A DNA stretch of 64,000 nucleotides from Candidatus Shapirobacteria bacterium. GTDB lineage: Bacteria > Patescibacteriota > Microgenomatia > UBA12405. Below the pieces are notes generated by a model. It searched no databases. It saw only the letters and a list, made by a program, of their open reading frames with translations, and was not told the origin of the DNA. Below, one piece after another: positions 6,649-17,625 of this stretch. Made by a program: the position numbers and the translations under genes. The stretch is taken from the NCBI GenBank assembly GCA_030698565.1, contig JAUYJS010000005.1, forward strand, positions 90,497 through 154,496, in the 5' to 3' direction. The first letter of the stretch is position 1, and every line of letters begins with the position of its first letter.

Positions 6649-7284
6649 ATGCAGGTGGAACACAAAATTATTTCTATTGGTTTTATAACGGTCGCTATGG
6701 CAATTTTATTATTGTCACTAATGAGGCCTTTTGGTGTCCGTGCTCAATATTATCAGCCAGGTGCTGCTAGTAAATCTATTGTGGTTGATAAAAAAGTAAG
6801 AGCCGTAAACCAAACTAATTATTTTGATAATTTAACTAGTAGTCAAAAGTTATTTTTTGACAACGATTTGATTGAATTTAGTATTACTATTCAAAATGGT
6901 GGTCAAGAAACCCTTCGAAATATTGATGTCAAAGATTTTTTACCAAAAAACTTAAGGTTGATCTTTAATCCTGGCACGTTTAATGCGAATGGAAATACTG
7001 TTGAATGGAAGATTGATCAACTAAATCCAGGGGAAAGTAAAAACTATTTGATTAGAGCTAAAATTATCGGAGTTGCTAATTTAAAACTTACTTCTAATTT
7101 GCAATTAACCAATACTGCATCGGCAAACGTTGATAATATTTCAGATCAAGATAGATCAAGCTATTTTATTGGTGTTCAGACTATCCCTAAGACTGGAAAT
7201 AATGACATATTGGTTAAAACAATTTTAATTTTGAGTGTTGCTGGTGGAAGTGTTTACTTGAGAAAAGTGGCCAGAGGATATTAA
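6649..7284 (+). CDS. Secreted DUF11 (conserved-repeat) surface protein with a C-terminal IPKTG sortase sorting signal
   Basis: The N-terminus has a hydrophobic signal/anchor. The central region resembles a DUF11 repeat. The C-terminus reads TIPKTGNND, then a hydrophobic stretch ILVKTILILSVAGGSVYL, then the basic tail RKVARGY. That is a classic LPXTG-type cell-wall sorting signal. Confidence 0.65.
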   Translation: MQVEHKIISIGFITVAMAILLLSLMRPFGVRAQYYQPGAASKSIVVDKKVRAVNQTNYFDNLTSSQKLFFDNDLIEFSITIQNGGQETLRNIDVKDFLPKNLRLIFNPGTFNANGNTVEWKIDQLNPGESKNYLIRAKIIGVANLKLTSNLQLTNTASANVDNISDQDRSSYFIGVQTIPKTGNNDILVKTILILSVAGGSVYLRKVARGY

Positions 7285-7286
7285 AA

Positions 7287-8492
7287 TTAATTTACCCTAA
7301 CTCTGTCAACTTTGTAGATTGCGGAAAGAGAGTACTTGGACGTAAAGGGAATATCGCGTCCGTTCTCCACATAAGGATCGTTCATAATATATTTTCCATT
7401 TTCTTTTGATTTTATTACTACAAAGTGCTCTCCATTATTCATTCTTATTCCAACGATAACTGGGTTATTAGAGTTTAATTCGGAATCGATACTCGATAAT
7501 GAGCTCCCAATTCTAGTACGAGTGATATGAATGTCATTTACACTGAATGATCCTTGTAGTAAGTAGGCGGTTCTTCCAAAAAAAGCATTGGAACTACCAG
7601 CAATATCTGAAGGTTTTATATTTTTACCATAATGAGATGCCACCATCGCTGTTGAAGTGATTAAACAGCCATATTCGGCAATAGAGTCAGATGAAAGGCC
7701 TATTGGGTAATTGCCCCATTGGGAATCTCGTTGATTATAATAACAGCCCCAGCTATTACATAAAGTTTGGTTATTTAAGAGAGAAGCGCCTCCTTGAGAT
7801 GTAATAAAGCTTCCAAAAGAAGCTAACTGTTGTTTAGCATCAGCCAACAACTGTTCATATTTTTTCTCATCATTTTTTGTTACCTCTAGAAGGTTATTTT
7901 TAGTAGCTTTTTGATTATTGAGATTGTTTTTTTGGCTAGCTAGAGTCTTTTGAAGTGTTTCTAGTTCTTGTTGTTTTTTGGTTTTTTCTTGTTTTTGAAG
8001 ATCGTAATTAGTCCGAGTGGTTTCTAAATTAATAAGACTATCTTGACTACTTTTTTGAATCATTGAAACATATTTATATTGTTGTAAGAACATATTCAGA
8101 TCTGAAGTTAAAAACAAAGAAATAAGCGGAACTCGTTTTTGAAGTTTATAGTTTTGAGTTATTTGATGGATATAAGCAGATGAAAGTTGGTTTAAATAAG
8201 AATCTAAACCGTTAATTTTGGCGGTAAGCAGGTCAATATCTTTTTCCAACGTATTTACGGAGTTTTCTGTCTGGTTTATTTTTAGAATATTTAGTTGTAT
8301 TTGAGAGTCCAATATTTTTATTTGATTAGCGAGGGTGTCTTTGGATTTTCCCAGTTCATTTAACTTTTGGGTGTATTCATTAATTTGATTTTGAATTTGA
8401 CCAGTGTCAATATTTTCGGCGACTAGAATTTTGGAGAAAATAAAAAAACTGGCTAGCAAGAGAAGTAGGGTTACGAATGATTTTTTAATCAT
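7287..8492 (-). CDS. Secreted coiled-coil protein with a C-terminal papain-like (C39_2/CHAP-like) cysteine peptidase domain; putative FtsEX-regulated peptidoglycan hydrolase (PcsB analogue)
   Basis: It has a signal peptide. About 220 aa are heptad-rich and Q/K/E/L-rich (coiled coil). The C-terminal domain contains NQRDSQWG...EYGCLITSTAMVASHYG (candidate nucleophile Cys) and a downstream GEHFVVI...MNDPY His/Asp. It lies 3 nt downstream of ftsX. Confidence 0.6.
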   Translation of the reverse strand: MIKKSFVTLLLLLASFFIFSKILVAENIDTGQIQNQINEYTQKLNELGKSKDTLANQIKILDSQIQLNILKINQTENSVNTLEKDIDLLTAKINGLDSYLNQLSSAYIHQITQNYKLQKRVPLISLFLTSDLNMFLQQYKYVSMIQKSSQDSLINLETTRTNYDLQKQEKTKKQQELETLQKTLASQKNNLNNQKATKNNLLEVTKNDEKKYEQLLADAKQQLASFGSFITSQGGASLLNNQTLCNSWGCYYNQRDSQWGNYPIGLSSDSIAEYGCLITSTAMVASHYGKNIKPSDIAGSSNAFFGRTAYLLQGSFSVNDIHITRTRIGSSLSSIDSELNSNNPVIVGIRMNNGEHFVVIKSKENGKYIMNDPYVENGRDIPFTSKYSLSAIYKVDRVRVN

Positions 8493-8495
8493 TCC

Positions 8496-9362
8496 TTAGT
8501 ATTTAATATATCTTTTAACACCAATAAAACTAGCAAAATAACCAATGGCTGTTCCGATTAATACCTGGCTAAAAAAGACAATTAAATAGAAATTAATATC
8601 GTTGTTGATAAAAGTTATTGGTTGAAAAAAGAAATTGATTCTTTTTTGAAAATAAAAAGCCAAGGTGAAACTTAAAAATGAGCCTAAAAAGCTGCCAATA
8701 AGTCCGTAAATGACACCTTCTATTAAAAAAGGTTTTTTTACATAAAACTTAGAAGCACCTAAAAGCCGACTGATTCTAATTTCTTCTTTGCGATTGGTTA
8801 TTTTCATACCAATAATCACGAATGTAATTAAAAACGAGGTTAGTGTTGTTACAGAAACTATAGAAAGACCTGTTTTTCTGGTTATATTAGTAAAATTCAA
8901 AATAGATTTGATTATGTCTTTTTGATAAATTATTTCATCAACAATATTGGTTTTGGTAGAAAATTCTTTGTCTATTTGGTCTAAAACCTTGGGGTCAGAT
9001 ACTGAAACTTCAAATGAAGCGGGGAGGATACTGGCTGTGACCATTTCGGTTAACATGGGATTGTCTTTGTTTTGTTCTTTATAAATATTTAAGGCTTTGT
9101 CTTTGGAAATATATTTGACTTCACGAACATTGGGATATTGGGATAAATTTTGATTAATTTCATTGATGTTTTTTTGATCTAAACCGTCTTTTAAAAAAAT
9201 AGTAATTTCCGGTTTGGTTTCAAAAAAATGAAGCACTGATGATAACCCAGAACTAATGATTAGGAAGACTGAGAGGGTGAAGAAACATATTGTCATCAAG
9301 AGAACAGCTATAAAACTTTGAAATGGTGACCTCCGAATGTGGTGCCAGGTGGTATTGATCAT
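8496..9362 (-). CDS. ftsX: Cell division ABC transporter permease FtsX
   Basis: Four-TM topology with a large extracellular loop and the conserved FtsX N-terminus MINTTWHHIRRSPFQSFIAV. It overlaps ftsE by 4 nt. Confidence 0.85.
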   Translation of the reverse strand: MINTTWHHIRRSPFQSFIAVLLMTICFFTLSVFLIISSGLSSVLHFFETKPEITIFLKDGLDQKNINEINQNLSQYPNVREVKYISKDKALNIYKEQNKDNPMLTEMVTASILPASFEVSVSDPKVLDQIDKEFSTKTNIVDEIIYQKDIIKSILNFTNITRKTGLSIVSVTTLTSFLITFVIIGMKITNRKEEIRISRLLGASKFYVKKPFLIEGVIYGLIGSFLGSFLSFTLAFYFQKRINFFFQPITFINNDINFYLIVFFSQVLIGTAIGYFASFIGVKRYIKY

Positions 9363-10054
9363 GTTTTTTCTGAATAATTATGGGTTTTTTGAGGAGTGTC
9401 GTTGACAATTGTGCCATTTTTGAGCCATATAGTTCGATTATTTAATGACTCGATTACGTCTTGGTTATGAGTCGTCATTATAATTGTAGTCTTATATTTT
9501 TCGTTAATTTCTTTGAGGAGTCTGATTAGATTCCATGAGTTTTCCACATCAAGGTTGCCTGTGGGTTCATCGGCCAAAATGAGTCCGGGTTCTACGGCCA
9601 AAGCTCTGGCTAAAGAGGTGCGTTGAAGTTCTCCACCAGATAGTTGGGAGGGAAAAAGAAAACGGCGGTTAATAAGACCGACCCTTTTTAAGACGTCGTC
9701 TATTTTTGAGATTATTTTTGCTTGAGGGTAAGTGACAATATCGAGTGCTAGGGCGATATTTTCTTCAATAGTTTTGTCGGGTATTAGTTGAAAGTCTTGA
9801 AAAATTACGCCAATTTTTTGTCTGATTTTGTCTGTTTGGTTTTTTTTGGTATCAGTTAAATTAATATCATCAATTAATATTTCACCTGAACTAGCCTTTA
9901 CTTGATTAAGAATTAATTTTAGTAGGGTTGACTTCCCAGCTCCAGAAGGACCAACAATAAAGACAAACTCGCCATTTTTAACCGTAAAATTTATGCTTTT
10001 TAGAGCACTTATCGCACCAAAACTCTTGTTGACATTATTGAACGCTATTTTCAT
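9359..10054 (-). CDS. ftsE: Cell division ABC transporter ATP-binding protein FtsE
   Basis: Walker A GPSGAGKST, ABC signature LSGGELQR and Walker B ILADEPTGNLD are all present. Confidence 0.9.
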   Translation of the reverse strand: MKIAFNNVNKSFGAISALKSINFTVKNGEFVFIVGPSGAGKSTLLKLILNQVKASSGEILIDDINLTDTKKNQTDKIRQKIGVIFQDFQLIPDKTIEENIALALDIVTYPQAKIISKIDDVLKRVGLINRRFLFPSQLSGGELQRTSLARALAVEPGLILADEPTGNLDVENSWNLIRLLKEINEKYKTTIIMTTHNQDVIESLNNRTIWLKNGTIVNDTPQKTHNYSEKT

Positions 10055-10062
10055 CTTTATGT

Positions 10063-10542
10063 TTATTCGAGTCTTTTAATACTACCAATATCCATTAACC
10101 AGCCTGTTTTGGTGGAGGCATTAGTTTGACCTTTTACTTCTACTTTTAATCCAACAAATAAGTCTAAATCAACAGCTGAAGAGGTTAGTGATACTCTTTG
10201 ACTAATTCCGCCGTCTCGATTCAAAATATGTGTACCCTCGCCGTTTATATTACCTTTTTCGATTGTTCCCGAGGCAGTATCTTGAAATGCCTTGCTAGAG
10301 TCTCCGTATATTTTCCCAACTTGAACATCATCTTTGTTTTTTAAACTATCTGCAGAAGCTGCGGTGTTCTTTTCAGAATTAGTATTGGAAACAGGTGAGG
10401 TAGATTTTTGAGAAGGAAAATAGCGTGATAACCAAAAACCACTGGTTACAGCCAGGACAGCAATTATTAGAATAACAGGCAATAAAGATTTTTTTTGAGA
10501 AACTTGATTAATATTACTGGCAGATAGATTTGGTATATCCAT
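10063..10542 (-). CDS. Hypothetical membrane-anchored protein
   Basis: It has an N-terminal TM helix and an S/T-rich linker. There is no recognisable catalytic motif. Confidence 0.4.
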   Translation of the reverse strand: MDIPNLSASNINQVSQKKSLLPVILIIAVLAVTSGFWLSRYFPSQKSTSPVSNTNSEKNTAASADSLKNKDDVQVGKIYGDSSKAFQDTASGTIEKGNINGEGTHILNRDGGISQRVSLTSSAVDLDLFVGLKVEVKGQTNASTKTGWLMDIGSIKRLE

Positions 10543-10565
10543 ATTAAAAATTAAATTTTAATAAT

Positions 10566-11609
10566 TCAGTATAGCAAAAAGTTGCTTTGAAAAAACTGAT
10601 GAAAGTTTTTATATTCTTTGTCGGCAGGAATAAACACCCATTGCTTATTTATAAAATTTTCTGGATGATAAATTTGTCCTTCTTTTTCATTGCTTCCAAT
10701 AGTTAATTCAATTTTTGTCAGTGAAATATTTTTAATTTGTTTTTGAAGAATAATTCCGATACTTGTTAAATTTTTGTCGGTTAAGTTGGTGTTTATTTGG
10801 TTGTGCCAAAAATTATATAATTTAATTAAATTGGAATAGTCTATTATAAATTCTTTGGTTTTAATTTTTTTGATAATAGCGTCAATCAGTGATTGTTGTC
10901 GTTCAATACGACCAATATCAGTTCCACCACCAATAGCAGTTTCGGCACTTTTTCGAGACCGAACAAACTCGGTAATATTTGATTCAGATAGATGGTTCCA
11001 ACCAGCGTCAAAAGATATGGTTTTGTATATTGGCGCCTTGGGGTTGGTTATATATTCGGGATTGGGATATTTATTGTCCATAAATACTTTGTCTAAAAAG
11101 ACATCAACTCCGCCAATAATTTCGACAAAGTCAATTAAATTTTGAGTGGTAAAAATAATAGTTTTTTCGATTGGAATTCCAGTTAGGCGGGAGAAATTAG
11201 TTTGGAGGAAATCAAAAGGTTGCTTATTACTTAAAGATAGTGGATAGATGTTGTTAATTTTGGTATTGAGTTGATAATCCCAGAGATCTCTAGGGATAGA
11301 AGTAATTTTAATTTGACCATTATTTAGATTTAAAAAAGCGATCATAATAGTGTCAGTTGTTTCGGTCTTTTCTAGTCTATCGTCGCGTTTGTCTAGTCCT
11401 AATATTAGAAAATTAATTGATTTTTGATTTTTAAATTCATTATTTTTAAGGGTTTGGTATGGTGTATTTAGTAAATATGAAACTGGTTGATTAATCTTTT
11501 TGGACAAAAATATTAAAGCCGCAGTGACTATAATCATTACCAAAAGTATTGCTGAAGTAAGTAATATTGAAAATATTTTTAGAATTTTTTTGAAATTTAT
11601 AAGATTCAT
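10566..11609 (-). CDS. LytR-CpsA-Psr (LCP) family cell-envelope glycopolymer transferase
   Basis: N-terminal TM, then [44 protein letters not shown], the LCP core motif. Confidence 0.8.
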
Positions 11610-12691
11610 ATTTTTAGTTCAGCCTCAATAAACGCATCTAAGTCCCCATCTAAAACACCATTTGTGTCTGATGTTTCATATCTGGTTCTTAAATCTTTGA
11701 CCATTTTATAGGGATGAAGTACATAAGATCGGATTTGGTGACCCCAGCCAGCAATCACATTTTCTCCTTTCACGTCTTTCTTCTCCTGGCTTTGTCTTTC
11801 TTCTTCGATTGCCCACAGCTTAGAGGAGAGCATTTGCATGGCTAACACTCTATTTTGTTCTTGAGATCTTTGGCTTTGACAGGAAACGGCGATGCCTGAA
11901 GGTTTATGAACGATTCTGACCGCAGTACTTACTTTGTTCACATTTTGACCGCCATGACCACCGGCCCTATATGCGGAAAATTCTATATCCGCTGGATTAA
12001 TTTTGACTTCAGTATCATTTTCAAAAAGCGGGGCAACTTCGACTTTGGCAAAAGATGTTTGACGAAGTTGGTCGGCATTAAAAGGCGAAAGTCGAACTAA
12101 TCTGTGAGTACCAGTTTCGCCACGAAGATAGCCATAAGCATATCGATGATTCACTTTAAAATATACAGATTTAATACCAGCTTCTTCACCTGGAACAAAA
12201 TCTAAAACTTCAAATTTCCAACCTTTTTTTTCAAAATATTTCATGTACATGCGGTGCAACATTGAAGCCCAATCCATGGCTTCGGTACCACCTTGGCCAG
12301 AGTGGACAGATAAAATAGCTGAATACGAATCATATTTACCTGAAAGGTAGGTTTTTAATTCAATTTCAGCTATTCTTTTTTCTATTTGATCAACATCATT
12401 TTCCAACTCTGTTGACATGGATTCTTCCGGATCATTTTTGAGAAGCTGAAACATTTCGACAGCGTTGGATATTTCTGTTTCGATTGATTCAATTTCTTGT
12501 GTAAGTTTTTGAAGTTCAGAAACCTTTTGGAGAAGATCTTGGGCTTGAGTGGGATTTTGCCATAAATCAGTTTTTTCTGATTCTAGTTTTAGAGTATTAT
12601 ATTCAGATTTAACTTGATCGTAATTTAATTTACTTTTTAATTGTTCAAATTTAGTTTTTATTTCGTTAATTCGATCCATTTTTGTTTTCAA
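11606..12691 (-). CDS. prfB: Peptide chain release factor 2
   Basis: SPF tripeptide (RLSPFNADQ), GGQ motif ([13 protein letters not shown]) and the N-terminal coiled coil are present. The ORF is contiguous over 361 aa, so no programmed +1 frameshift. Confidence 0.9.
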
Positions 12692-13097: not shown

Positions 13098-13487
13098 CTA
13101 TCTTTTAGTTATTTGTTGTTGAATGTAGTCGATTATAGGTGTGTCGCCAGAAATACAGGTATTGTCGATGTTGGAAAACGCTAGCGGCACCCCGCCTTTT
13201 TCATCGGCAGTTAAGGTGGTACATTTTTTTGTTATTTCGGTAAAATCCATCTGGTTTTGTTTATTGTAGAACACCTCTTTTTGTTTTATGGCTAATTTAG
13301 AATCAATTTTATTGTCGATTATGTATTTTTTAACCTTTTCACAATGAACACAGCCGTTGCCCCAAAAAAGAATAATATCTGCTTTGTCGTCGGCCAAACT
13401 GCTATTGATGTTTGGTTTATAGGAAACTAATTTATAGACTGCAAATACGACCAAGGCAATAATAAAGGCATAAATTATTTTTTTCAT
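13098..13487 (-). CDS. Membrane-anchored thioredoxin-fold (glutaredoxin/NrdH-like) CxxC protein
   Basis: N-terminal TM plus WGNGCVHCEKVKKY, a CxxC redox motif. Confidence 0.55.
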   Translation of the reverse strand: MKKIIYAFIIALVVFAVYKLVSYKPNINSSLADDKADIILFWGNGCVHCEKVKKYIIDNKIDSKLAIKQKEVFYNKQNQMDFTEITKKCTTLTADEKGGVPLAFSNIDNTCISGDTPIIDYIQQQITKR

Positions 13488-14121: not shown

Positions 14122-14883
14122 TTATTTTAGCAGAACCAACATATTTCTTGGTCCGGAATCAATATCTTCTTTAATATCACTTTTAGGGAAATCATGATTA
14201 CTTTCTAATAAAAGATTATAGGAATATTTAAAATAGGCACCAAATTGAGTGCCAACATCATGAACAATGAATTTCTGGATATTATCGTTATAACCCAAGA
14301 TGACAACGCTGTGATAATAAGGGCCGCCTGATTTAAAGTAACGATTTTCTTTATATAAAGTTTTCCCGTTTGCCGGAACAATAACTGGAATATTTTGAGA
14401 AATATATTTTTTAATTTCTTCAATTGTTGGATTAGTAACTATGTTGGTTTTATAATTTAAATAGTTGGAAGATAAAATGGCCATTTGAGTAGTATTAATA
14501 TCTTTGGCCCATCCCTGACTTTTTTCAAAATCTATCATTTTCAAAATATCGGTTTTGGTTTGGTCTAATGATGGCTGTTGATTTTTATAGTAATAATCTA
14601 CAGTTAAAAGTGCAGCTTCTTCGCAGGAATCTTGCCAAGGTTGATCCCAGTTTTTCTCGGGTGCTTGGGGAACAAAAACGGTGGAAATTAAATGTTTGTT
14701 GGGTAAACCATCGGGTAAGATTTTTGTAGGTTGAGGTAATAATATTTCTCCAATTTCTTCTGTTTTCTGAGTTAAATAAAATGTTTTGTTGTTTATTTTT
14801 TCTTGATTTTTTTTATTGAAAATAAAGAAAGTAAATATTAATAGAAAAATAAAACCAAAAAGATAAAATATTTTTTTGACCAT
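14122..14883 (-). CDS. Secreted papain-like (C39_2-like) peptidase domain protein
   Basis: Signal peptide plus QAPEKNWDQPWQDSCEEAALLTVDYYY (Q...C motif) and a downstream YYHSVVILGYND His. Confidence 0.5.
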   Translation of the reverse strand: MVKKIFYLFGFIFLLIFTFFIFNKKNQEKINNKTFYLTQKTEEIGEILLPQPTKILPDGLPNKHLISTVFVPQAPEKNWDQPWQDSCEEAALLTVDYYYKNQQPSLDQTKTDILKMIDFEKSQGWAKDINTTQMAILSSNYLNYKTNIVTNPTIEEIKKYISQNIPVIVPANGKTLYKENRYFKSGGPYYHSVVILGYNDNIQKFIVHDVGTQFGAYFKYSYNLLLESNHDFPKSDIKEDIDSGPRNMLVLLK

Positions 14884-15777: not shown

Positions 15778-17625
15778 ATGCAAAAATACCAAGATATCCG
15801 AAATATAGCCGTAATCGCCCATGTTGATCATGGCAAAACTACCTTGGTTGATGCTTTATTGAAACAAACACACACTTTTAGGGAAAATCAGGAAGAAATG
15901 AATATTGACCGGATTATGGACAGTAATGATTTGGAAAGAGAAAAAGGTATAACTATTTTGTCAAAGAATACTTCGGTAATGTACAAGAATACAAAAATTA
16001 ATATTATCGATACTCCAGGGCATGCTGATTTTGGTGGAGAAGTAGAAAGAGTCTTGAATATGGCTGACGGTGCTTTGTTGATTGTCGATGCGGCTGAAGG
16101 TCCTTTGTCACAAACAAAATTTGTTTTAAAAAGAGCTTTGGATTATGGTTTGAAAGTAATTTTGGTTGTCAATAAAATTGATAGAAAAGATGCGAGAACT
16201 AAAGAAGTAATAATGGATACTGAAAATTTGTTTTTATCTTTGGCTGATGATCCGGAACTTTTAGATTTCCCAATTATTTATGCTATTGGTCGTGAAGGAA
16301 AGACTTTTTATAAAATGCCTGATTCTTTGGAAGAAATAGGCGATACTTCTCCCCTTTTTGAAACTATTTTAAAAGCTATTCCTTCGGCTGTTAAAAATGA
16401 AGATAAGCCATTCCAAATGTTAGTTTCTTCTTTTGAAAAGAACGAATACTTGGGTAGATTATCAGTAGGTAGAATCAATCAAGGAAAAATCAATAAAAAT
16501 GACACTATTTCTTTGGTAAGGCCGAGCAATGAAGTAATTGGAAATTTTAAAATTGAAAAAATGTATGTCAACGAAGGTATCAGTAAAGTGGAAACTGATA
16601 GCGCTGGCAGTGGTGAAGTTGTTTATTTGGCTGGAATTTCGGCAATAGAAATTGGACAAACACTAACCAGTACTGATTCTCAAGTAGCATTGCCAAATAT
16701 TGAAGTAAGTGAGCCAACATTAAAAGCTAGTTTTGGACCAAATACTTCTATTTATGCTCGAGATGAGTCAAAATATTTAACTAGCCGGGAATTGAAAGAA
16801 AGACTTTTCCAAGAAGCTGAGACTAACTTGGGATTGAAAGTTGAAGATGATCCTGAAGATAGTATTCGTGTTTTGGTTTCAGGCCGAGGTGAATTACATT
16901 TGGCTATTTTGATTGAAAAATTACGTCGCGAAGGTTATGCCATGGAAGTGGGGAAACCTGAAGTAATTTTGAAAACTATTGATGGAAAAGTTTGTGAACC
17001 ATTCAACGAACTAATTATTTTGTCTCCCGAAGAATATATGGGAACAATTACATCTGAATTAGGTAAAAGAAAAGCAGAAATGCAAGATATGCAAACAGAT
17101 GGAAAAGGCGGAATAAAGATGACTTACAAAATAAGCGAAAGAAATGCTTTGGGTTTGAGAAGTGTGTTAATGACAGAAACAAAGGGAACCATATCTTTAA
17201 ATTTCTTATTTTTGGGATATGAATTAAAACAACCAGAAACTAATAAGACCAGAAATGGTGTATTGATTGCTTCGGAATCAGGTAAAGCATTGTCGTTCGG
17301 ATTGGATTTAGCTCAAAAAAGAGGTATTACTTTCATCGAACCAACCGCTGGTGTTTACGAAGGACAAATTGTGGGTTTTAGACCAATGATTGGGGATTTG
17401 GAAATTAATATTTGTAAAGGAAAGCAACTAACAAATATGAGATCTTCGGGTAACGATGATTCGATTATGTTGGCGCCGCCAGTCAAATACAGTATTGAAG
17501 AGTCTTTGGATTTTATAAACAGTGATGAGTTAATCGACGTAACCCCAAAACAGATTAGATTAAGAAAGAAACAATTAAGCAAGGTCGACAGAATCAGATC
17601 CGAAAGAAAACAAAAAGTAAGCTAA
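15778..17625 (+). CDS. typA: Translational GTPase TypA/BipA
   Basis: AHVDHGKTTLVD, DTPGHADFGGEVER and NKID are present. At 615 aa it is co-linear with BipA. Confidence 0.9.
   Translation: MQKYQDIRNIAVIAHVDHGKTTLVDALLKQTHTFRENQEEMNIDRIMDSNDLEREKGITILSKNTSVMYKNTKINIIDTPGHADFGGEVERVLNMADGALLIVDAAEGPLSQTKFVLKRALDYGLKVILVVNKIDRKDARTKEVIMDTENLFLSLADDPELLDFPIIYAIGREGKTFYKMPDSLEEIGDTSPLFETILKAIPSAVKNEDKPFQMLVSSFEKNEYLGRLSVGRINQGKINKNDTISLVRPSNEVIGNFKIEKMYVNEGISKVETDSAGSGEVVYLAGISAIEIGQTLTSTDSQVALPNIEVSEPTLKASFGPNTSIYARDESKYLTSRELKERLFQEAETNLGLKVEDDPEDSIRVLVSGRGELHLAILIEKLRREGYAMEVGKPEVILKTIDGKVCEPFNELIILSPEEYMGTITSELGKRKAEMQDMQTDGKGGIKMTYKISERNALGLRSVLMTETKGTISLNFLFLGYELKQPETNKTRNGVLIASESGKALSFGLDLAQKRGITFIEPTAGVYEGQIVGFRPMIGDLEINICKGKQLTNMRSSGNDDSIMLAPPVKYSIEESLDFINSDELIDVTPKQIRLRKKQLSKVDRIRSERKQKVS

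Follow-up and report, generated by a model that had tools for sequence, protein, structure and literature searches.

The third gene of a Shapirobacteria ftsEX operon encodes a coiled-coil protein with a C39-like module that is exchanged for permuted M23 in relatives

The ftsEX operon and its third protein

The stretch analysed here (the window) comprises 64,000 nucleotides of a contig from a Candidatus Shapirobacteria bacterium, which belongs to the patescibacterial group Microgenomates, and is AT-rich (GC 30-37%). Its minus strand carries an operon of ftsE, ftsX and a third gene, whose product of 401 aa is 100% identical to the NCBI entry 'C39 family peptidase [Candidatus Shapirobacteria bacterium]'. 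Our computations covered gene order, the homology of both halves of this protein, its fold, its invariant catalytic residues, synteny and the swapping of catalytic modules among relatives. An earlier note, made from the letters of the window alone, had described a protein with a signal peptide, a long coiled coil and a C39_2-type peptidase domain with a Q...C (GCLITSTAMV)...H...N/D arrangement rather than a CHAP, NlpC/P60 or LytM domain, and had placed the three genes at spacings of -4 and +3 nt. The list of open reading frames (ORFs) and the junction sequence give exactly these spacings: ftsE and ftsX overlap in ATGA, and the ftsX stop and the third start codon are joined as TAA-GGA-ATG.

FtsE matches the NCBIfam model TIGR02673 at 1e-71 (241 bits, slightly under the equivalog cut-off of 264.85), and Walker A (GPSGAGKST), signature (LSGGELQR) and Walker B (LILADEPTG) motifs were read from its sequence. 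FtsX is recognised by Pfam FtsX_ECD at 3.4e-19 (69.7 bits against a gathering score of 23.5, profile positions 2-93 of 96), by Pfam FtsX at 1.2e-11 (45.2 bits, gathering score 25.5) and by NCBIfam FtsX models at 1e-51 and 1e-48, the last two under their equivalog cut-offs. It also matches the PDB FtsX chains 8hd0_C, 8idb_C, 8i6o_A and 8tzj_C at 1e-14 to 3e-11; these belong to the solved complexes of E. coli, M. tuberculosis, P. aeruginosa and V. cholerae. The matches agree with the FtsX expected of a type VII ABC mechanotransmitter, which has four transmembrane (TM) segments and, between TM1 and TM2, a large extracellular domain.

A hydrophobic segment, MIKKSFVTLLLLLASFFIFSKILVA/EN (the slash marking the predicted cleavage site), opens the 401-aa protein, and A25 within it is kept in at least 90% of homologues. 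The protein is therefore predicted to be exported. An AlphaFold2 model of the full-length protein, built with the family alignment, has a mean predicted local distance difference test score (pLDDT) of 87.8, low in the signal-peptide region. After the N-terminal hydrophobic helix it places helices at residues 30-48, 54-120, 132-205 and 209-232, followed by an alpha/beta domain at 240-401. The two long helices, of 67 and 74 residues, measure about 100 Å each, which is the scale reported for EnvC and PcsB (PMC11627006). The NCBIfam EnvC model matches aa 32-222 at 3e-8. When a profile of 37 family sequences was compared with the PDB, E. coli EnvC (8hd0_E) was found at 1.1e-10, aligned in register over residues 16-230 including the hydrophobic motif of the hairpin tip, together with V. 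cholerae EnvC at 1e-7 and PcsB at 2.6e-3. EnvC of V. cholerae and of E. coli (8tzl_E, 6tpi_A) also rank first and second in a Foldseek search of the PDB with the full-length model, and further matches include PcsB (4cgk), RipC from the M. tuberculosis FtsEX complex (8idc_E), the N-terminal domain of RipA and the C39 domains of PCAT1 and ComA. The N-terminal half of the protein is a homologue of the coiled coils of EnvC, PcsB and RipC, which are known partners of FtsEX.

Two tyrosines of the hairpin tip, Y115 and Y141, are invariant in homologues. The model loses confidence there, with a pLDDT of 62-75 in a dip spanning aa 110-140, as would be expected of a region that becomes ordered upon partner binding. 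By analogy with the EnvC-FtsX and RipC structures, from which the docking role of the tip is taken (PMC11627006), aa 115-141 are presumed to dock onto the extracellular domain (ECD) of FtsX.

The C-terminal domain is a member of Pfam Peptidase_C39_2 (PF13529). Residues 251-374 cover profile positions 5-143 of 143 at 4.5e-10 (40.7 bits against a gathering score of 24), and many homologues carry a precomputed PF13529 annotation. Peptidase_C39 (PF03412) is matched as well, at 1.3e-7 (32 bits against a gathering score of 22). No CHAP, NlpC/P60 or M23 match to the domain appeared in Pfam at E<=1, and no structure of these kinds was found within its top 50 Foldseek matches. Modelled alone (176 aa), the domain reaches a pLDDT of 94 and a predicted TM-score (pTM) of 0.91 and is confidently predicted to adopt a papain fold. 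Its Foldseek neighbours are all papain-like: the C39 domains of PCAT1, ComA and LahT, contact-dependent inhibition (CDI) toxins, PeiR, 3ERV, SpeB and AvrRpt2. The match to the ComA PEP domain has a target-normalised TM-score of 0.63 and an rmsd of 3.5 Å over 136 columns at about 15% identity.

The catalytic residues Q254, C276 (within the motif GCLITSTAMV), H356 and D372 are invariant in 119 full-length homologues, as are R255, D256, W259, G275, P294, F304 and P373. The signature QRD...W...GC...H...DP is likewise invariant in 121 sequences of three architectures, namely 28 from Microgenomates, 69 from Dormibacterota and 24 of about 490 aa that have an unrelated repeat region before the domain. 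This invariance rules out a degenerate pseudo-enzyme of the EnvC kind; the catalytic set is intact, and the domain is probably an active cysteine peptidase. The hydrophobic N-terminus with its conserved A25, the helical hairpin of about 200 aa and the C39_2 assignment with its Cys/His dyad all agree with what the earlier note had described. In the proteins of about 490 aa (e.g. P0351), the C39-like domain stands behind repeats of the GGVHPFGGAP type. A cysteine pair, C245/C250 (CxxxxC just before YYNQRD, window 7743-7760), occurs in the majority of C39-like domains from Microgenomates but not in those from Dormibacterota, and it may form an extracytoplasmic disulfide.

Linkage to ftsEX and exchange of the catalytic module

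We asked how far the third gene is tied to ftsEX by sampling loci from both sides. For the C39-anchored sample, one genome per GTDB species was scanned; relatives were found in 524 GTDB species genomes, and the best 80 loci were examined. In all 77 assessable loci ftsX lies directly upstream, the other 3 of the 80 having less than 350 nt of upstream DNA. The order prfB-(LCP)-TM159-ftsE-ftsX-gene is conserved, LCP denoting a LytR-CpsA-Psr gene and TM159 a gene for a small membrane protein. In 65 loci whose ORFs are complete, the junction between ftsE and ftsX has a median of -4 nt and that between ftsX and the third gene a median of +4 nt; the latter gap does not exceed 50 nt in 63 of these loci. 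The ftsX-anchored sample consisted of 80 metagenome loci collected with an alignment of five FtsX sequences (FtsX identity 36-69%, not all Patescibacteria). Here a homologous coiled-coil gene directly follows ftsX in 68 of 68 assessable loci, so the gene is co-conserved with ftsEX from whichever side the loci are approached. Many GTDB records of metagenome-assembled genomes with the Microgenomates-type operon (L001, L003-L005, L007, L009 and others) are titled 'uncultured Gammaproteobacteria' or 'Pseudomonadales bacterium', which look like placeholder or wrong taxonomic labels.

The C-terminal domain alone was also searched against 1.84 billion cluster representatives, yielding 1031 matches at E<=1e-3 and 193 at E<=1e-10; the homologous coiled coil is present in 100 of the 104 listed matches of 360-460 aa. 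A more distant branch, of about 430 aa and matching Pfam CC_PcsB, comes from Candidatus Dormibacterota (L083, L084, L086-L089; proteins P0280-P0348). Its members are named 'PcsB-like coiled-coil domain-containing protein' by NCBI and 'CwlO-like' by JGI.

The catalytic end of the third protein varies among the ftsX-anchored loci, being C39-like in 28 and a permuted M23 domain in 32. In the permuted M23 module the C-terminal half (G-x-x-G-x-S-x-G-x-HLHF) comes before the N-terminal half (HHGID...LYLHLQ-stop). Re-permutation of one member in silico turned two split Pfam stretches (62 bits) into a single PF01551 match over positions 2-89 of 96 (73 bits). Such a continuous match indicates a genuine circular permutation in which HxxxD and HxH are intact. 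Coiled-coil proteins of the permuted-M23 family, with the C-terminus ...GKMTLYLHLQ, are encoded at 8001-9098 of L081 and after ftsX in L090, L091, L093 and L103, and include P0376-P0384.

When module type was placed on a neighbour-joining tree of 59 FtsX proteins, at least 8 switches were needed, whereas 500 shuffles of the labels required 19.6 on average and never fewer than 11; module type is thus partly clade-bound yet repeatedly exchanged. The coiled coil does not follow the module. Over its N-terminal 160 residues the ratios of identity within to identity between module types are 1.05-1.12, and a coiled coil that is equally similar within and between types behaves as a common FtsX adaptor. 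We also considered a tail helix with a 'restraining' role that would be specific to the module; the signal was weak (an identity ratio of 1.17 against 1.05-1.12 elsewhere), and we do not claim it.

Exchange can also be seen between nearly identical strains. Between window position 16498 and the end of ftsX, contig L081 matches the window at about 98% identity, which drops to 89% in the first 400 nt of the third gene. The similarity ends at window position 7928 (aa 188), and beyond it L081 encodes permuted M23. Three contigs from different samples, L142, L139 and L138, are 99.7% identical over about 4.35 kb that include ftsE, ftsX and the first 159 or so codons of the third gene, and then diverge into a C39-like module, a permuted M23 and a second M23-like variant. 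The near-identical contigs all end no more than about 100 nt past the partner gene, as an assembler would make them end at a strain-level bubble. The pattern points to a divisome effector, presumably an essential one, that is polymorphic between strains. Contigs L140, L141, L143 and L082 are listed with the same strain divergence. We considered whether L081 (P0014) could be an assembly chimera and rejected this, since two runs gave the same junction, the C-terminus of M23 type is that of a real family with a fixed natural end (...LYLHLQ), and the independent contig trio from different samples repeats the pattern.

Of 146 loci, 144 have one module type to the exclusion of the others, a count in which the ends of metagenome contigs can hide tandem copies. 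In L117 and L120, ftsX is followed in tandem by a coiled-coil C39 gene and a coiled-coil permuted-M23 gene, both full-length and each with its own signal peptide (L120 3861-6133). Downstream cassettes with silent or orphan modules, of the kind seen in polymorphic toxin loci, were sought and none was found; the only two of the 146 loci that combine module types are these, with full-length genes in tandem. The tandem arrangement may represent an ancestral or intermediate state that gave rise to single-module alleles by recombination in the coiled coil, since recombination between tandem homologous coiled-coil regions would produce the hybrid alleles observed. Tentatively, and with less than even confidence, we suggest that the FtsEX effector of Microgenomates could be a cassette-like polymorphic locus, its modules being swapped within coiled-coil DNA even among co-occurring strains of 98-99.7% identity, so that selection on the presumed central division hydrolase would be diversifying or balancing, and this hydrolase would not be a fixed housekeeping enzyme. 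Wall chemotype, host- or phage-derived inhibitors and metal versus redox availability are examples of what might exert such selection.

Known FtsEX partners, proposed role and alternatives

The catalytic domains known from FtsEX partners are LytM (EnvC), CHAP (PcsB) and NlpC/P60 (CwlO, RipC, RipA); C39 is mentioned neither in a 2024 review of FtsEX nor in a 2025 mechanistic paper. A 2023 survey of papain-like peptidases treats C39_2 proteins as single-domain enzymes linked to transporters, and FtsEX is not mentioned in it (PMC10318531). Our literature search found the architecture undescribed in the searchable papers, most subscription journals lying outside the search. The C39-like module is a catalytic type undescribed for FtsEX partners in the literature searched. 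The earlier note had proposed a distinct solution to cleavage of the septal wall in this lineage, and this stands in part: the module on an FtsEX-linked adaptor is undescribed, but it is not the sole solution, as about half of the close operons carry permuted M23, and it occurs in Dormibacterota too.

PcsB of Streptococcus pneumoniae is similarly a secreted protein with a long N-terminal coiled coil and a C-terminal cysteine hydrolase of the papain superfamily, the partner itself being the enzyme. Profile and fold matches to 4CGK, and matches of some family members to Pfam CC_PcsB, agree with this likeness. However, PcsB carries a CHAP domain with a C-H-E/N set, whereas the domain of the 401-aa protein is C39/C39_2-like with Q-C-H-D; pcsB is unlinked to ftsEX, whereas the gene here is the third ftsEX cistron; and the coiled coil of the 401-aa protein is nearer to that of EnvC than to that of PcsB in sequence. 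EnvC (E. coli, V. cholerae, P. aeruginosa) is the closest coiled-coil homologue, with helices of similar length (about 100 Å), but it is catalytically dead and, through a degenerate LytM/M23 domain, activates AmiA and AmiB, whereas the 401-aa protein has an intact cysteine peptidase set and no M23 domain. CwlO of B. subtilis and RipC and RipA of Mycobacterium and Corynebacterium also join a coiled-coil adaptor to a papain-superfamily wall endopeptidase under FtsEX. Theirs is NlpC/P60, in contrast to the 401-aa protein, which has neither an NlpC/P60 match nor a proline-rich linker; the cluster lacks the cofactors SweCD and SteAB, and ftsE is preceded instead by the unrelated TM159. Because the defining catalytic domains were tested for and not found, the 401-aa protein falls outside the PcsB, CwlO and RipC families. 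It may nonetheless work as these do, with the adaptor itself being the enzyme.

The fold subclass and the Q/C/H/D arrangement are held in common with the C39 domains (PF03412) of peptidase-containing ABC transporters (PCATs) such as ComA, PCAT1 and LahT. The C39 profile is indeed passed, yet the domain here follows a secreted coiled coil and has no exporter attached; PCAT domains lie at the N-terminus of ABC exporters, whereas this one is predicted to be exported, and its expected substrate is the cell wall instead of a Gly-Gly leader. Among C39_2 proteins (PF13529), the best Pfam family, B. anthracis 3ERV is a Foldseek match. The domain differs from them by its fusion to an FtsEX-type coiled coil and by its own invariant YYNQRD...W...GC...H...DP signature. 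C39_2 also serves as an endolysin catalytic domain, as the N5 domain of mycobacteriophage LysA, Bxz2 gp11 (PMC3314691), and it appears in lists of lysin domains (PMC10541714).

We consider it probable that the operon encodes an FtsEX-controlled extracytoplasmic wall hydrolase with an exchangeable catalytic module, most likely one that splits the septum. We infer a sequence of export, FtsX binding, autoinhibition and peptidoglycan cleavage, in the service of division. The exported 401-aa protein would attach to the extracellular domains of an FtsX dimer by its hairpin tip, which is of the EnvC type, and the ATP cycle of FtsE would alternately inhibit and release it. After release, the C39-like peptidase (Q254, C276, H356, D372), held about 100 Å (10 nm) off the membrane, would cleave peptidoglycan at peptide or amide bonds, its most likely task being to split the septum. 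The coiled coil would act as a generic FtsX adaptor with an exchangeable catalytic end, C39-like or permuted M23, and recombination within the coiled-coil DNA would turn one allele into another. The docking, ATP-driven release and autoinhibition steps are modelled by homology on the EnvC, PcsB and RipC systems (PMC11627006, PMC12505981). Peptidoglycan is the likely substrate given the adaptor, the interchange with an intact M23 domain, the endolysin use of C39_2, a weak PHROG endolysin match (2.4e-4) and the fold neighbour PeiR, a cell-wall isopeptidase (pseudomurein endoisopeptidase). In particular, replacement by a catalytically intact M23 on the same adaptor suggests functional equivalence to a wall peptidase.

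Several observations weigh against this reading. Among C39 relatives, those characterised best are proteases of leader peptides rather than wall hydrolases, and no phage lysin homologue was found by tblastn. The Foldseek E-values of the domain are only about 1e-3 and its TM-scores about 0.5; no solved structure is close, and substrate specificity therefore cannot be read from homology. The Dormibacterota gene is as a rule monocistronic and stands apart from ftsEX (L086-L089), resembling in this respect the unlinked pcsB and cwlO of Firmicutes. In L084, a Dormibacterota locus, the ftsEX operon has a coiled-coil M23 partner of its own (ftsE-ftsX-(coiled-coil M23), 9517-12595), and the C39-type gene (7001-8305) lies 1.2 kb upstream of it. 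Because the Dormibacterota architecture is mostly unlinked to ftsEX, dependence on FtsEX may not be universal for the family.

Canonical C39 domains cut after Gly-Gly leaders, and the protein could instead be an FtsEX-tethered protease that processes or sheds a secreted or wall-anchored protein, such as a pilin, an adhesin or a sortase substrate, at the division site. This would accord with the sequence families matched, which are C39_2 and C39 only, with the nearest solved folds, which include the leader peptidases PCAT1, ComA and LahT as well as papain-like toxins, and with the convergent neighbouring gene, whose product is a surface protein with a sortase-like signal. We nevertheless regard such a protease as quite unlikely, because the domain is interchangeable with M23, a wall-peptidase family, on the same adaptor in near-identical strains, because no PCAT-type exporter is fused to it or encoded beside it and the operon showed no genes for double-glycine precursors, and because all characterised coiled-coil FtsEX partners act on peptidoglycan (PMC11627006). 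We give very little credence to a non-catalytic role in which the C39-like domain switches on a separate hydrolase, e.g. an amidase. EnvC, the closest coiled-coil homologue, does act through a degenerate LytM domain (PMC11627006), but that domain has lost its catalytic residues, whereas Q, C, H and D are invariant here in more than 200 sequences from two phyla and three architectures. The alternative M23 module keeps HxxxD and HxH too, and the conserved cluster holds no amidase gene.

If the enzyme is an FtsEX-controlled peptidoglycan hydrolase, it could still serve wall expansion or turnover rather than septal splitting. FtsEX-CwlO of Bacillus subtilis provides an example of use in elongation (PMC6705773, as cited in PMC11627006), several members of the family are named 'CwlO-like' by JGI, and nothing in the window links the operon to divisome genes. 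Specific support for elongation was not found, however, and Patescibacteria cells are tiny and septal cleavage is the commonest role of FtsEX, which makes a function in expansion rather unlikely.

FtsEX-controlled wall cleavage is a central and very active topic in the study of cell division. A fourth type of catalytic module, borne by a clearly homologous adaptor and encoded both by Dormibacterota and by hundreds of Patescibacteria species that are uncultivated, would widen the rule of FtsEX-partner modularity and supply a concrete candidate cell-separation enzyme for a large uncultivated clade. It would also provide a physiological context for a subfamily of C39_2, otherwise described as single-domain peptidases in one survey. 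The natural allele series (C39, permuted M23, tandem) on near-identical backbones amounts to a ready-made experiment, which bears on how one mechanotransmitter controls unrelated active sites and on whether autoinhibition resides in the adaptor or in the module.

Neighbouring genes and feature coordinates

Coordinates of the operon, of features within its third gene and of neighbouring genes, numbered along the window
Feature	Position	Strand	Description
ftsE	9359..10054	-	ABC ATPase, 231 aa; ABC_tran 9e-37, best NCBIfam match TIGR02673
ftsX	8496..9362	-	Permease-like mechanotransmitter, 288 aa; extracellular domain about aa 52-140
Coiled-coil + C39-like peptidase gene	7287..8492	-	401 aa + stop; third operon gene
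Predicted Sec signal peptide	8418..8492	-	aa 1-25, ...KILVA/EN; from sequence, with a putative cleavage site
EnvC/PcsB-type antiparallel coiled coil	7797..8405	-	aa 30-232; profile match and Foldseek
Hairpin tip	8070..8150	-	aa 115-141, YKLQKRVPLISLFLTSDLNMFLQQYKY; presumed FtsX-ECD docking region
C39-like papain-fold catalytic domain	7290..7775	-	aa 240-401; Peptidase_C39_2 4.5e-10 and domain model
Q254 codon	7731..7733	-	Putative oxyanion-hole Gln within YYNQRD; invariant; coordinate checked
C276 codon	7665..7667	-	Putative catalytic nucleophile within YGCLITS; invariant
H356 codon	7425..7427	-	Putative catalytic His within EHFVVI; invariant
D372 codon	7377..7379	-	Putative third catalytic residue within MNDP; invariant
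Module-swap breakpoint against contig L081	7926..7931	-	Between aa 188 and 189; alignment lost beyond 7928
TM159	10063..10542	-	159-aa single-pass membrane protein, no family match; candidate accessory component
LytR-CpsA-Psr (LCP) gene	10566..11609	-	LytR_cpsA_psr 1.4e-20
prfB	11606..12691	-	Product with PCRF and RF-1 domains
Standalone membrane-anchored C39_2 protein	14122..14883	-	253 aa; C39_2 4.6e-10

TM159 lies between prfB (or the LCP gene) and ftsE in every locus with enough DNA, at a median gap of 8 nt to ftsE; in the window, too, it ends 8 nt upstream of ftsE. It has no match in Pfam, PDB or PHROG and may be a cofactor of FtsEX. Its extracellular C-terminal domain of about 70 aa is conserved as GEGxH..R.GG.SQ..YLTSS..DL...VG.KV.VWGET....KAGWLMDVG. 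The LCP gene stands 23 nt from TM159 and overlaps prfB by 4 nt. An LCP gene in this position is confined to Shapirobacteria-like loci, and in more distant Microgenomates loci prfB adjoins TM159 directly, with no LCP gene between them.

Convergent with the third operon gene is a gene for a DUF11-domain surface protein (window 6649-7284, plus strand), the two stop codons being 2 nt apart. The C-terminus of its product resembles a sortase sorting signal, with IPKTGNN, a hydrophobic stretch and RKVARGY. Shapirobacteria-like loci, and L120 too, have a homologue of this gene after the partner gene, likewise in convergent orientation. This envelope context, an LCP gene and a convergent surface-protein gene with a sortase-like signal, fits a wall-bearing cell. 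Further upstream of the operon, a 129-aa membrane-anchored protein (window 13098-13487, minus strand) has a CxxC motif (WGNGCVHCEKV) and no Pfam match on record.

The earlier note had called the protein encoded at 14122-14883 a C39_2-like paralogue of the fused domain. Its family assignment holds, as the protein passes C39_2 at 4.6e-10 and has plausible Q/C/H/D residues. Comparison with the fused domain gave no significant similarity (BLASTP E 0.08; hhalign probability below 1%), so it is a distant member of the C39_2 family; close paralogy was rejected, the two having only the Pfam family in common. In Shapirobacteria-like loci the gene is kept about 5.6 kb upstream of the operon, beside genes for a cyclophilin lipoprotein and a PHP-domain protein.

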